DNA from: a virus
Lineage: Duplodnaviria; Caudoviricetes
Virus record (IMG/VR): IMGVR_UViG_3300027804_000038
Span: 160,001-224,000 of that record
Direction: 5' to 3' (one strand)
Length of the DNA: 64,000 nucleotides
Shown in pieces: positions 39,165 through 43,300 of the stretch. Under the pieces are notes generated by a model, which made no database searches, had not been told where the DNA came from, and saw nothing but the letters and a program-made list of their open reading frames with translations. The translations under genes and the position numbers were made by a program. The number at the start of each line of letters is the position of its first letter. Within the stretch, counting starts at the first letter, position 1.

Positions 39165-40088
39165 TTGGAAAACTATTATGATATTTTAGGAGTCGCGGAA
39201 ACCGCTACACAAGATGAAATTAAAAAGGCTTACAGACAAAAGTCAAAAGAACATCATCCTGATAAGGGAGGTAACGAGGAAACTTTTAAAAAGATAAATG
39301 AGGCGTATACTACTTTGGGTGACGATAATAAAAAAGTCCAGTATGATAACCAAAGAAAGAACCCATTTGGTAATAATCCTTTCGGTGATATATTTGGAGA
39401 TTTTTTTGGAGGTTTTGGAGGACAACAAGTTAAAAGGGCTCCTGATAAGATTATAAATGTACAAGTAGGTGCCGTAGATTCTTATTTAGGTAAAGAAATA
39501 AATATATTTTTTAACAGGAAAAATAATTGTCAACCTTGTAATGGACAAGGAGGAACTAGAAATACTTGTAAAAAATGTAATGGTAGCGGATTTATTACAC
39601 AAAGAGTTGGTAATGCGTTTTTCTCTAACATTATACAAACTCATTGTAATGAGTGTAATGGTAAAGGTTATAGTCTAACTAATGTTTGTCAATCATGTTT
39701 AGGAGAGGGAAGAATCGACGAAACAAAATCAGTCTCAGTTAATCTCCCAAAAGGAATATCTGACGGGCAGTTAATAAAGGCTGGGGGAATGGGTGATTAC
39801 TCTAACGGTATGTTTGGTGATGTTATATTTAAAATTAATATTATACCACAAGCGGGATTTGAAAAATCAGGTTCCGACTTAGTTTATAATAAATTTATGT
39901 CATTAGATGATTTTACTAAAGAAAAAATCCAAATTCCACATCCATCAGGTGATTTAAATTTAACATTACCTGACGACATAGACACAAGTAAACCACTTAA
40001 AGTAAAAGGTAAGGGTTACCAAAATGAAAATGGTGATTTATATGTTAGAATGTATGTTAGACATAGAAAAAATAAGTTAGATTATTGA
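39165..40088 (+). CDS. dnaJ: DnaJ (Hsp40) co-chaperone
   Basis: J-domain YYDILGV...HHPDK, short G/F region, four CxxCxGxG repeats and a C-terminal domain (GD(V/L)); TTG start. Confidence 0.92.
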   Translation: MENYYDILGVAETATQDEIKKAYRQKSKEHHPDKGGNEETFKKINEAYTTLGDDNKKVQYDNQRKNPFGNNPFGDIFGDFFGGFGGQQVKRAPDKIINVQVGAVDSYLGKEINIFFNRKNNCQPCNGQGGTRNTCKKCNGSGFITQRVGNAFFSNIIQTHCNECNGKGYSLTNVCQSCLGEGRIDETKSVSVNLPKGISDGQLIKAGGMGDYSNGMFGDVIFKINIIPQAGFEKSGSDLVYNKFMSLDDFTKEKIQIPHPSGDLNLTLPDDIDTSKPLKVKGKGYQNENGDLYVRMYVRHRKNKLDY

Positions 40089-40955
40089 ACTAACTAACTT
40101 ATCAACATCAAACATTTCGGAAATTGACATATAAGGACACTCGTGGTTTATTCCCTCAAATGAGTAGTCAAATAAATATGAATCTATCAATTTTACTGTG
40201 TCTGAAGGTAAATTAGCAACAATGTTATTGTGTAAATCGTAACCAAAATTTTTGGGTGAAGTACCAATCCAAATTACGTTAGACTTTAGACCAAGAGCTG
40301 ACGATGCATGTTGTAAACATGAATCAATTAGGATTCTTTTATCTGACACTAAAAGAATTGAGAATAAATCATTAGATGATAACTCATCATTAACAACCTC
40401 AACACCACTGAGTTGTCTAGAAGATGGTTTACAAATTTGAATTATATGGTGAGTCCTTTCAAATTTTTTAACCAAAGACTGAGATACGTCAAAAGGAATA
40501 TCTCTAGTCCATGAATATGGTTGTTTTGAATTAAAGGCACCTCCATTAGTTTGTATAACTAAAATAGGTTTTTCTCTGTACCATTTATTAGATGACCTTT
40601 TTTGTGGTAAATTTAAGTTAAGTACTGGAGTTTGATTTTTATAATCAATACCTAACAAATCAGCCCAATTTTCAATTAGATGGGATTTTTTATGAATATG
40701 ATTTGATTGATAATATGGTTCATGTCTGAAAATTATGGTGTCCTTATCTTTTATATAATCATCATAAAAATATTGAGTGTTACCTAATTTATAAACTCTA
40801 TATATCGAATCATTATTTAAAAATACTTCAGGATATGATGCAACGACTACTATTTTTCTATCTGAATATTTTTCTTTAAGTGAAGATAGTAATGAAGTTG
40901 CCGCAATATTTTTTCCTAAACCACCCTGTATGTGCCAAACTATATATTTTTCCAT
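40077..40955 (-). CDS. GT9-like (heptosyltransferase fold) glycosyltransferase
   Basis: IQGGLGKNIAATSLLSSLKEKY at the N-terminus and ILIDSCLQHASSALG near the C-terminus, resembling the GT9 GLGD and DSG..H.A.ALG motifs. Confidence 0.7.
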   Translation of the reverse strand: MEKYIVWHIQGGLGKNIAATSLLSSLKEKYSDRKIVVVASYPEVFLNNDSIYRVYKLGNTQYFYDDYIKDKDTIIFRHEPYYQSNHIHKKSHLIENWADLLGIDYKNQTPVLNLNLPQKRSSNKWYREKPILVIQTNGGAFNSKQPYSWTRDIPFDVSQSLVKKFERTHHIIQICKPSSRQLSGVEVVNDELSSNDLFSILLVSDKRILIDSCLQHASSALGLKSNVIWIGTSPKNFGYDLHNNIVANLPSDTVKLIDSYLFDYSFEGINHECPYMSISEMFDVDKLVSSII

Positions 40956-41398
40956 TATTTTTTTGTCCCAATTCTTATAAATTTATACCAAACACGCTCA
41001 TGAATAAAGTAAACTATAGGTTTAAATAACAATTCACCAATACCAATTAGAGATGATAGTTCTAATGAAATACCTAAAGAAAAAGCTGAACCAACTGTTA
41101 TTAAAGTACCTAATATACGATAAGAAATTGTTTTTAAAATGTGTCTTGTAAGTACCGATTCTTCTTTAATTGTAGTTATATAGGCTACAGTATTTTTTAA
41201 TTCACATACTCCTTTACAGCTAATATGCCACTTAAATTCATTTAATTCGGGAACCCAATCCTTAGTTGTATAAGTATGACCATCAACAATTATATCGGAA
41301 ACTAAAATTTCATTACCGTTTTCAATTAGTCTCCATCTCTCACATTCATTTGTTGAGTTAGTATTGTATCTTATTTGAAAAGTTTTTATATTCTTCAT
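40955..41398 (-). CDS. Two-domain protein with a C-terminal DUF2061-like membrane domain
   Basis: RHILKTISYRILGTLIT...KPIVYFIHERVWYK matches the DUF2061 pattern. Confidence 0.7.
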   Translation of the reverse strand: MKNIKTFQIRYNTNSTNECERWRLIENGNEILVSDIIVDGHTYTTKDWVPELNEFKWHISCKGVCELKNTVAYITTIKEESVLTRHILKTISYRILGTLITVGSAFSLGISLELSSLIGIGELLFKPIVYFIHERVWYKFIRIGTKK

Positions 41399-41793
41399 AA
41401 TTTACCTTCAAGCCTCATTTGTTCCCTTATTTTAGTTGCAGAAATGTCGTGTATTTCTTGTGGAGGGATTCTTTCAATAATATCATATCCAACACCTCTA
41501 CCAAATTCTATTGAACATATATCAGGTATAACCATCACTTTAACCCTATCACTCAATTCTGAATAGTGTAACTCAATATTACTTTTAACTTCTTGTGCGG
41601 TAAATGGATTTTTTTCATCTGGCTCAATATCTCTAATACAAATTAGAACATTCTTACCTTCATCCATAGCTTGTTTAAATAGCTCCTGGTGTCCTTTATG
41701 TAGAGGTTGCCACCTACCAACAAACATTGCAAATTGACCATCTTTTGATTTTAAAGAGGATTGAACGTGAAGTTTTTTATCCCAATTACTCAT
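41395..41793 (-). CDS. HxGH-superfamily nucleotidyltransferase (cytidyltransferase/NadM-like)
   Basis: FVGRWQPLHKGH and ISATKIR motifs; 4-nt overlaps with cysC and the DUF2061 gene. Confidence 0.8.
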   Translation of the reverse strand: MSNWDKKLHVQSSLKSKDGQFAMFVGRWQPLHKGHQELFKQAMDEGKNVLICIRDIEPDEKNPFTAQEVKSNIELHYSELSDRVKVMVIPDICSIEFGRGVGYDIIERIPPQEIHDISATKIREQMRLEGKL

Positions 41794-42218
41794 TTTCTAT
41801 TAAAAGGTATTAAATTAAGACATTCGTCTATAGTTTTATTTGTTGTATCGATATTAATAAAGTCTTCAGTTGGTTGTTCATATTCCTTAACAAAATTATG
41901 TTCTCTACCCCTGATTTCACTTGTGTGAACATATATTTCACAAACTTCATTAGTTTCCTTTAATGAGTTTCTCATTTTTTTATAAGGAGCAACAACAGAA
42001 ATAACAACAGTAAATCCCTTGTGGTCTAAAAATCTAGCTAAATCTAATACAGATTGGATATTTTTAATTCTACCTTCTGAAGAATAATCAAAGTTTTGAA
42101 ATAGTTCTCTCAAACCATCTCCATCAACATTAATACAATTATCTGAACACTTCTCAATTAAAGCGTTTGCTAATGTTGTTTTTCCTGCACCAGGTTGACC
42201 TGTAAACCAATAAATCAT
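41790..42218 (-). CDS. cysC: Adenylyl-sulfate (APS) kinase, compact form
   Basis: IYWFTGQPGAGKTTLA P-loop, DGDGLR, GRIKNI, VISVVAPY, EIYV and YEQP. Confidence 0.8.
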   Translation of the reverse strand: MIYWFTGQPGAGKTTLANALIEKCSDNCINVDGDGLRELFQNFDYSSEGRIKNIQSVLDLARFLDHKGFTVVISVVAPYKKMRNSLKETNEVCEIYVHTSEIRGREHNFVKEYEQPTEDFINIDTTNKTIDECLNLIPFNRK

Positions 42219-42478
42219 TGTGATATGTAGTTTTTACCCGATTGAATTGAATCGTTAATATCCTGTAGTTGGTTTTGAGTTAATCCTGACATAAACCAAT
42301 CTTTATTTTTCATCAATTCTAAATGTTTATAGTTTCTTTCTACAGTATTTTTTTTTGTGTCAATATCGTCATTAATAAGTTTAGACCCATCGATTATACC
42401 ATTTATTAGGTTCACTGAGTCAAATGCTGAATTAATTGACCTTGCAACATTTGGAACTCTTTCTTTTTCGTTATCCAT
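42215..42478 (-). CDS. Hypothetical helical protein, possible fibre-associated chaperone
   Basis: 87 aa; the DSVNLIN...RNYKHLELM..KDW pattern recalls small ORFs found beside phage fibre genes (recollection, not a search). Confidence 0.45.
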   Translation of the reverse strand: MDNEKERVPNVARSINSAFDSVNLINGIIDGSKLINDDIDTKKNTVERNYKHLELMKNKDWFMSGLTQNQLQDINDSIQSGKNYISQ

Positions 42479-42484
42479 ATTATT

Positions 42485-43300
42485 TTATTTATAGTTAAAT
42501 TTATTAAAAAACCAATTATAATGATTATATAATCTATTACAATTTTCAATACCTAATATCTCATTATAATCTTCTTTTTGAGGAGAAAGAGTATTTTTAA
42601 TGGTATGGTCACCAAAAATACCATGGATTACATCATTTTCATGAGTTAATTGTTCTATTCTCTCAAAATCATGTTGATATGGAGGTATTTCTAAATAATT
42701 ATAAATTCGTTTTAGTTCTAATTCAGGATTTGAAGTTAAATCTTCAAATCGGATAAATAAAATATCTTTATCGTATCCTTGGTGAATTGATTCATATAAC
42801 CATTCTAAAGATGGACCAATTGGCGGAGATATCGAAAAGTGGTCAATTCTTGAATTAGTTGTCATATTTTTCAGCTCAGAAACATTTACTAAAAGAGGGT
42901 CCTTATGTGAGTTCTTTCTATAGTTTTTTTCCATTGAAGAAAAAATAGACCTAAGGTCTCTAACCATACAGATAATTTTTGGAGTACCGTAAAACCATTT
43001 TAAGAAATGGTAGTTACCAATCCAAGCTCTACTCTTATCAATAACATAAGGTCTTTCAGTAATACCATCAAAAAAACCATTTAAACCTTTTTCACAAAAA
43101 CTTCTTAATCCCTCTTTCATTTCATCAGGATTTTGAGCTTTAAATGCGTCTCCTGTTGAATATATTGTTCTGGCTTGTAAAATTAATTCTATAACACCTG
43201 ATGTTGGTGTAGAATATATGTCAGGATTTTGCATTAATATATTTTGAATTAATGTCGAGCCCGCTCTAGGTAAAGAGGCATTAAAAAATATTTTCTTCAT
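42485..43300 (-). CDS. PAPS-dependent sulfotransferase (Sulfotransfer_3-like)
   Basis: 5'-PSB loop SLPRAGSTL, 3'-PB motif RDLRSIFSS, and IRFEDL. Confidence 0.85.
   Translation of the reverse strand: MKKIFFNASLPRAGSTLIQNILMQNPDIYSTPTSGVIELILQARTIYSTGDAFKAQNPDEMKEGLRSFCEKGLNGFFDGITERPYVIDKSRAWIGNYHFLKWFYGTPKIICMVRDLRSIFSSMEKNYRKNSHKDPLLVNVSELKNMTTNSRIDHFSISPPIGPSLEWLYESIHQGYDKDILFIRFEDLTSNPELELKRIYNYLEIPPYQHDFERIEQLTHENDVIHGIFGDHTIKNTLSPQKEDYNEILGIENCNRLYNHYNWFFNKFNYK

Follow-up and report, generated by a model that had tools for sequence, protein, structure and literature searches.

The gene cluster at the locus

The stretch of DNA analyzed here, referred to as the window, comprises 64,000 nucleotides (positions 160,001 to 224,000) of the IMG/VR virus record IMGVR_UViG_3300027804_000038 (Duplodnaviria; Caudoviricetes), a record of 293,850 bp that is rated complete by CheckV. 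On its minus strand, a small gene encodes a nucleotidyltransferase of the HxGH type, designated the mini-NT, which adjoins a gene for an adenosine 5′-phosphosulfate (APS) kinase of the CysC type. A first-pass annotation made from the letters of the window had put the mini-NT forward as a candidate minimal ATP sulfurylase. We followed up this proposal with comparative evidence, namely fold, homology, deletion, conserved residues, fusion, neighborhood, and phyletic patterns.

The mini-NT belongs to a tightly packed run of minus-strand genes behind tail-fiber-like genes. The order along the minus strand is sulfotransferase, an 87-aa (amino acid) open reading frame (ORF), APS kinase, mini-NT, DUF2061 protein, and a 292-aa protein, with the following coordinates (PAPS, 3′-phosphoadenosine 5′-phosphosulfate):

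42485..43300, minus strand: 271-aa PAPS-type sulfotransferase (PF13469 64 bits, PF00685 40 bits, phrog_27463)
42215..42478, minus strand: 87-aa ORF between sulfotransferase and APS kinase (no Pfam or PHROG match)
41790..42218, minus strand: 142-aa short-lid APS kinase, CysC-like (PF01583 67 bits, TIGR00455 76 bits)
41395..41793, minus strand: 132-aa HxGH nucleotidyltransferase (mini-NT), candidate minimal ATP sulfurylase (ORF with ATG start; PF01467)
40955..41398, minus strand: 147-aa protein, DUF2061 membrane domain at its C-terminus (PF09834 50.7 bits)
40077..40955, minus strand: 292-aa protein, last gene of the run (no Pfam match; weak phrog_8954 match)

The mini-NT ORF did not arise by chance, because its matches form 7459 clusters at 90% identity and its AlphaFold2 model, calculated with 105 family members, reached a mean pLDDT of 95.1 (pTM 0.86). 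Counted on the translation, the motifs GRWQPLHKGH and ISATKIR occupy residues 26–35 and 117–123. The overlap with cysC described in the first-pass annotation is real as well: the ATG of the mini-NT overlaps the stop codon of the 142-aa APS kinase ORF as ATGA, and its own stop codon overlaps the ATG of the DUF2061 ORF in the same manner. Both junctions suggest translational coupling, of the kinase with the mini-NT and of the mini-NT with the DUF2061 protein.

The APS kinase of the window keeps the P-loop, DGDxxR, (E/D)GRxxN, and SPYxxxR positions and lacks about 14 lid residues compared with canonical CysC. The sulfotransferase translation contains a PRAGST loop near the N-terminus and the stretch RDLRSIFSS, which may be read as 5′-phosphosulfate-binding (5′-PSB)-like and 3′-phosphate-binding (3′-PB)-like motifs, respectively. 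The 292-aa protein is possibly a glycosyltransferase (GT). For the 87-aa ORF, a homologue was present in just 8 of the 80 related viral loci introduced below. A megablast search of the whole module against GenBank phages returned zero matches.

Sequence family and predicted fold of the mini-NT

All Pfam and NCBIfam matches of the mini-NT are HxGH families. The score against PF01467 (CTP_transf_like) was 33.1 bits at a cut-off of 21. PF01747 (ATP-sulfurylase) remained below its threshold (17.3 bits vs. 24.3) and was matched by residues 29–52 only, and the weak PF01747 matches within the family fall on the HxGH and ISxT regions. The top NCBIfam matches were NadM-type nicotinamide mononucleotide (NMN) adenylyltransferase (NMNAT) models, which were matched over residues 22–91 only and with scores far under the cut-offs (TIGR01527, 31.8 vs. 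181.2; NF002243, 38.4 vs. 127).

When the 50%-identity representatives were searched exhaustively, 1282 matched at E ≤ 1e-3, 499 of them at E ≤ 1e-10, and at least 510 IMG/VR contigs encode relatives of the mini-NT. Across 105 diverse members, R27, H35, G98, G102, and R123 are invariant, while H32, G34, R54, P63, R99, V101, Y103, I117, S118, and T120 are nearly so. Because of this conservation, the nucleotide-binding and catalytic motifs can be regarded as being under selection.

In the AlphaFold2 model, a single domain spans residues 14–132. A Foldseek search against the PDB placed archaeal NMNATs first and phosphopantetheine adenylyltransferase (PPAT) next. In an exhaustive structural search (VIA-align), the best match was the NMNAT 1f9a (Z 9.8 over 110 residues, root-mean-square deviation 2.9), followed by the PPAT 4nah (Z 9.7), NadR (Z 8.5), the Thermus ATP sulfurylase 1v47 (Z 7.9, 115 residues aligned), and TagD 2b7l (Z 7.1), while human PAPSS1, Aquifex Sat/APS kinase, yeast Sat, and soybean Sat had values of Z 6.0–6.3. 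Profile comparisons with hhalign put figures on these relationships: the family aligned with true NadM over its whole length (99.8% probability, E 5e-30) and with Sat catalytic domains only in part (76%, E 2e-5), and NadM aligned with Sat at 69%. Thus, the resemblance to NadM and the common superfamily with Sat, both pointed out in the first-pass annotation, were recovered by profile and by structure. The predicted fold of the mini-NT is the HUP/Rossmann-like HxGH fold that is also used by Sat, yet it is closest to NadM.

Comparison with NadM-type NMN adenylyltransferases

Real NadM proteins from Patescibacteria and Pseudomonadota genomes were used for the alignments. The motifs GRxQPxHxGH, NPFT, IPD, and ISATxIR are retained in the family. 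With the NadM proteins of M. jannaschii (1f9a) and M. thermautotrophicum (1ej2) and the NadM-Nudix protein 2qjt, the mini-NT has GRxQPxHxGH, NPFT, and ISxTxIR motifs in common, and it is homologous to NadM along its full length. By contrast, the segment that follows strand 4 in NadM and contains its invariant Trp (W84) is missing in the family, leaving a gap of 26 alignment columns in hhalign and of 40–44 residues in the MAFFT alignment. We take this Trp to be the residue that stacks on the nicotinamide ring in NadM. In addition, the invariant G35-S36 of NadM after strand 2 corresponds to R54-D55 in the mini-NT family, and the GRGVGY loop (G98-R99-G-V-G102-Y103) is specific to this family and not present in NadM. 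Since true NadM proteins match the family profile over positions 2–77 only, NadM and the mini-NT are readily told apart. The genomic partners of the mini-NT, moreover, are APS kinase and sulfotransferases rather than NAD genes.

These comparisons bear on the possibility that the mini-NT is a genuine, shortened adenylyltransferase of NMN or nicotinate mononucleotide for NAD salvage, with the adjacent P-loop kinase phosphorylating nucleosides or ribosylnicotinamide in the manner of NadR. The top sequence and structure matches are indeed NadM-type NMNATs, phages do encode NadM-Nudix proteins, and a fusion in Casjensviridae lies beside a NADAR-domain gene. However, the Trp-containing segment of NadM is deleted, Arg has taken the place of the invariant Ser that follows strand 2, the NCBIfam NMNAT scores are far under cut-off, and the true NadM proteins of these phyla cover only part of the family profile. 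Moreover, the partner kinase is an APS-kinase homologue that is fully canonical in many fusions, and the recurring neighbors are sulfotransferases, so that we regard an NMNAT function as very unlikely. The loss of the Trp segment, together with R54 in the place of Ser36, makes a small anion a better candidate for the acceptor than NMN. The acceptor side appears both trimmed and more cationic, which would fit such an anion better than NMN.

Comparison with Sat, CysD/CysN, and other adenylyltransferases

The first-pass annotation had held that the mini-NT is neither CysD/CysN nor a full Sat, and this was borne out. The Sat active-site motifs QxRNPxHxxH and GRDHAG are not found in the mini-NT, while the Sat domains of Patescibacteria contain invariant Q-T-R-N, H..H, and G-R-D-.-A-G. 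Sat proteins have an N-terminal PUA-like domain and about 390 aa, whereas the mini-NT consists of 132 aa in one domain. Within the 293,850-bp phage genome, a genome-wide PF01747 search for a Sat homologue returned only the 24-residue match of the mini-NT itself, and for CysD there were zero PF01507 or TIGR02039 matches. Both the GRGVGY loop, with G98-R99, and R54-D55 are candidate counterparts of the GRDHAG loop of Sat, but the family–Sat and NadM–Sat hhalign mappings are inconsistent and have modest probabilities (76% and 69%, respectively).

The closest functional parallel would be the PAPS synthases and Sat-CysC fusions (PAPSS1, 1x6v; Aquifex aeolicus, 2gks; Patescibacteria), in which an adenylyltransferase of the HxGH/HxxH fold is likewise combined with APS kinase and feeds sulfotransferases. 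In these systems, the coupling to the kinase takes the form of a fusion in either order or of neighboring genes, as with the mini-NT, and the fold is common to both at Z 6.1–7.9. In animal PAPS synthases the kinase comes first, and in the Sat-CysC fusions of fungi and bacteria it comes second; the mini-NT fusions described below mirror this by occurring in both orders. The adenylyltransferase part is much larger in the Sat-CysC systems, with about 390 aa compared with 110–130 aa in the mini-NT family. Unlike Sat, the mini-NT lacks the PUA-like N-terminal domain and both active-site motifs, and by profile it is much nearer to NadM.

CysD/CysN takes the same position upstream of CysC that is proposed for the mini-NT, and in one sampled Patescibacteria genome this position is occupied by CysD/CysNC. 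However, CysD/CysN has an unrelated fold (PP-loop ATP pyrophosphatase plus GTPase), and no GTPase partner was seen for the mini-NT. PPAT (CoaD) and the glycerol-3-phosphate cytidylyltransferase TagD illustrate that an HxGH core of 115–160 aa suffices for nucleotidyl transfer to a phosphate-type nucleophile. However, they bind their acceptors through other elements than the mini-NT and are not linked to APS kinase.

Gene fusions and viral neighborhoods

The first-pass annotation had named fusion and neighborhood statistics with cysC as one way of checking its proposal, and these proved strongly positive. Among the 150 best of the 50%-identity representatives, 37 fusions of the two enzymes were found in both orders, 27 with the APS kinase first and 10 with the mini-NT domain first. 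PF01583 was detected by Pfam in 37 of 54 long members (best E 9.5e-69). Some of the fusions have a short-lid kinase like that of the window, and others a canonical CysC. Textbook CysC sequences (LDGDNxR, DRxENIRR, KGLYKKAR, FTGI) are carried by the fusions P0155, P0159, and P0221, and the canonical CysC domains of the fusions score 191–210 bits, that of P0159 reaching 191 bits over positions 3–152 of the 152 positions of PF01583.

The viral neighborhood set consisted of 80 loci with a mini-NT identity of 62–97%. In 76 of them, the gene immediately upstream was an APS kinase gene on the same strand, and in the other four this position is removed by the contig end, so that the kinase was adjacent in 76 of 76 testable loci. 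A homologue of the DUF2061 protein followed directly downstream in 65 loci, a sulfotransferase of the window type was present in 41, and a homologue of the 292-aa protein stood beside the module in 35. The neighboring sulfotransferases match three Pfam models, PF13469/PF00685 (the window and L125) and PF03567 (L124, L037, L025). In L037, which lacks the window-type sulfotransferase, a PF03567 sulfotransferase is encoded directly upstream of the kinase.

More distant members of the family had similar surroundings. The fusion P0279 is followed by a PF03567 sulfotransferase, and the order is sulfotransferase-kinase-NT in P0195 and kinase-NT in P0285. In phages, the fusions P0221 and P0155 are followed by DUF2061, an arrangement of kinase-NT fusion and DUF2061 that is seen in the phage contig sets L003/L004 and L122/L123. 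In P0215, the order is a GT2 gene, the fusion, and a GT9-like ORF; in L121, the GT9-like ORF comes after an NT-kinase fusion. Overall, the two hallmarks of a PAPS-synthesis module, coupling of an adenylyltransferase to APS kinase and a PAPS-dependent sulfotransferase in the gene cluster, were both found. A complex prediction with the window APS kinase and mini-NT alignments had a score of 0.00, which counts neither for nor against binding.

The same data are relevant to the idea that the mini-NT uses ATP or CTP to activate another small anion or a phosphate ester, whose product the kinase homologue then 3′-phosphorylates to a PAPS-like cofactor other than PAPS. In the O-methyl-phosphoramidate pathway of Campylobacter, the CysC homologue Cj1415 reportedly phosphorylates cytidine diphosphoramidate, so that APS-kinase homologues are said to be capable of taking other nucleoside 5′-diphospho compounds. 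The window kinase is divergent, short-lidded, and scores only 67 bits, and the acceptor of the mini-NT is not directly identified by the present evidence. Nevertheless, many fusions carry a fully canonical CysC, the neighbors are PAPS-type sulfotransferases matching three Pfam models, and in the Pfam matches of the gene run neither the glutamine kinase nor the amidohydrolase expected for phosphoramidate synthesis appeared. Moreover, within one phylum the mini-NT takes the place of Sat/CysD beside APS kinase, as described in the next section. We consider this alternative to be improbable.

Distribution in bacterial genomes

Members of the family were also found outside viruses. The fusion P0159 occurs on cellular contigs, where it adjoins a divergently transcribed sulfotransferase gene, and a scan of genome contigs with P0159 gave a single true cellular relative, an 88%-identical copy in a metagenome-assembled genome of Candidatus Saccharibacteria. 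The sampled bacterial genomes comprised 301 Patescibacteria and 401 Pseudomonadota. A full-length family member was present in two of the Patescibacteria, G001 and G245. In G001, the mini-NT forms a fusion with APS kinase, and in G245 it lies in an operon of a sulfotransferase-like gene (PF03567, sub-threshold at 20.8 bits), the mini-NT, and APS kinase, alongside GT2 and GT1 genes.

A strong APS kinase was encoded in 14 of the 301 Patescibacteria. In nine of these, the kinase was fused or adjacent to a canonical Sat; in one, CysNC adjoined CysD; in G001 and G245, the only APS kinase was partnered by the mini-NT; and in the last two, one of them G109, no kinase partner was found. The G001 and G245 assemblies contained no Sat or CysD above the cut-off. 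The slot beside APS kinase is thus taken by Sat, CysD/N, or the mini-NT, and never by two of them together in one sampled genome, which is the pattern expected for non-orthologous displacement. Since several ultra-small genomes (G206, G042, G189, G102, G034) encode Sat-APS-kinase fusions of 548–630 aa, PAPS synthesis, and presumably sulfation too, is not rare in the reduced-genome Patescibacteria.

The distribution also speaks to a third alternative, in which the mini-NT would be an accessory partner of APS kinase, serving in adenine-nucleotide binding or recycling (APS, PAP, or ADP-sulfate chemistry) or as a regulatory subunit, while APS would come from the CysDN or Sat of the host. Phage hosts are expected to own sulfate-activating enzymes, and in fungal ATP sulfurylase a degenerate partner domain has likewise taken on a regulatory function. 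However, hardly any variation is seen at the HxGH and ISxTxxR residues in the 105 members, unlike what a non-catalytic domain would show, and no second sulfurylase was detected in the two bacterial genomes that carry the pair. An accessory role therefore seems unlikely to us.

Distant fusions in cultured phages

A distant kinase-NT fusion with about 30%–38% identity is encoded by cultured Xylella (Casjensviridae) and Stenotrophomonas phages, among them the Xylella phages Salvo and Sano and the two phages listed here:

L001:4184-5360: distant kinase-NT fusion, Xylella phage Bacata
L002:4593-5324: distant kinase-NT fusion, Stenotrophomonas phage DLP_6

In Bacata, the genes immediately before the fusion are one with a NADAR domain and a 192-aa ORF whose Sulfotransfer_4 match stays below threshold. 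Bacata and DLP_6 represent tractable phages for testing the function.

Proposed function and significance

The mini-NT is likely a minimal ATP sulfurylase that converts ATP and sulfate into APS and pyrophosphate (PPi) and that derives from NadM rather than from Sat or CysD. The first-pass proposal gains support from the fusions, the sulfotransferases, and the two bacterial genomes with the mini-NT instead of Sat/CysDN, while the activity itself, with sulfate as the substrate, the roles of R54 and R99, the transfer of APS to its kinase, and the sulfation target, is what we infer from these patterns. Homology of the partner to APS kinase alone would be insufficient to indicate sulfate chemistry, which is suggested because the neighbors are PAPS-type sulfotransferases and because the mini-NT follows the displacement pattern of Sat and CysD.

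According to the mechanism that we propose, ATP would be held by H32 and H35 of the HxGH loop and by S118, T120, and R123 of the ISATKIR helix, which would also stabilize the attack on the alpha-phosphate, as in other HxGH nucleotidyltransferases. The deleted Trp segment of NadM would be replaced by the short GRGVGY loop, and this loop, together with R54 (an invariant Ser in NadM), would form a small cationic pocket for sulfate, whose in-line attack would give APS and PPi. APS would then pass to the translationally coupled APS kinase, which would remove it as PAPS and thereby pull the unfavorable equilibrium. The ATP sulfurylase reaction is thermodynamically very unfavorable, which may explain why the mini-NT was never seen away from APS kinase where context is available. 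PAPS would finally be spent by the phage sulfotransferase encoded two genes upstream of the APS kinase, probably on a glycan.

This is the least supported step; a glycan of either the host or the virion is the probable target, because the module has glycosyltransferase-like neighbors and lies behind tail-fiber genes. The cysC of the window is part of this module, whose most likely task is to sulfate a glycan.

Several observations weigh against a sulfurylase function. By sequence and by structure, NMNAT and PPAT are nearer to the mini-NT than Sat, and its closest characterized relatives are NMNATs (1f9a at Z 9.8 vs. 1v47 at Z 7.9), Sat is absent from the profile matches of the mini-NT to the PDB, and the two hhalign mappings disagree on the position that matches the GRDHAG sulfate loop of Sat. 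The absence of Sat and CysD in G001 and G245 rests on assemblies of unreported completeness, and no full-length member was found in the 401 sampled Pseudomonadota, which had only NadM-Nudix proteins. Furthermore, the host could supply APS, so that a sulfurylase of its own is not strictly needed by the phage, and the distant branch in cultured phages may serve NAD or ADP-ribose biology.

To our knowledge, there are two known families of sulfate-activating enzymes, Sat and CysDN. In the full-text literature, with subscription journals outside the coverage, there was no description of the family or of a NadM-derived sulfurylase, and the mini-NT probably represents an undescribed kind of ATP sulfurylase. 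More likely than not, it belongs to a third, independently evolved class with a NadM-derived core of about 110 residues that has lost the nicotinamide segment and gained two Arg residues (R54 and R99), works only with APS kinase, is common in phages, and replaces Sat/CysDN in some ultra-small bacteria.

If this is true, a third, very small sulfurylase would change how sulfate activation is annotated in genomes. It would also account for the PAPS supply wherever an organism or a phage encodes APS kinase and sulfotransferases without a recognizable sulfurylase. The first-pass expectation that such genes are widely misannotated as NMN adenylyltransferases held in part: sources do use this name for members, and they also name them cytidyltransferase-like or phosphopantetheine adenylyltransferase. 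In a review from 2025, cysC of aquatic viruses is listed among unvalidated auxiliary genes under "assimilatory sulfate reduction" (PMC12713726). Under the sulfurylase interpretation, many viral "cysC" auxiliary genes would instead belong to self-contained sulfation modules. With about 13–15 kDa, the sulfurylase could also be a compact component of systems that regenerate PAPS enzymatically.

Additional observations on neighboring genes and architectures

DUF2061 was also considered as a general marker of sulfate activation. DUF2061 was present in 45 of 201 sampled Pseudomonadota, and this use was rejected because four of the six Pseudomonadota loci checked adjoin a LysR regulator and a peroxidase, not cys genes. 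In these loci (L142–L144 and L139, from G319, G327, G347, and G483), stand-alone DUF2061 mini-proteins are encoded between the LysR-type regulator and the peroxidase gene, the latter being of the catalase-peroxidase type in three loci and a di-heme cytochrome c peroxidase in L139. This arrangement suggests a DUF2061 role tied to oxidative stress and separate from sulfate. A search for longer DUF2061 fusions yielded nothing useful.

Just downstream of the module, the window encodes a full DnaJ with a J domain and a CxxCxGxG zinc finger (39165-40088, plus strand), and another phage with a kinase-NT fusion (L003:5945-8374) encodes GrpE and DnaJ near the fusion. In some viral relatives (L074:5623-5991 and L078:5620-5991), the APS kinase and mini-NT genes are separated by a 122-aa ORF that resembles HAD phosphatases; it could be a pyrophosphatase or a 3′-phosphoadenosine 5′-phosphate (PAP) phosphatase that helps to pull the pathway. 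Three metagenomic members have long N-terminal extensions, with PF07460 in P0138 and Cys-rich sequence without a Pfam match in P0123 and P0127; the extensions resemble homing-endonuclease modules joined in frame to the mini-NT. Rare architectures were represented by P0144 and P0186: in one, the mini-NT is followed by a C-terminal SUF-type domain of Fe-S assembly (PF01883), and in the other it is fused to an LpxB-like domain (PF02684).

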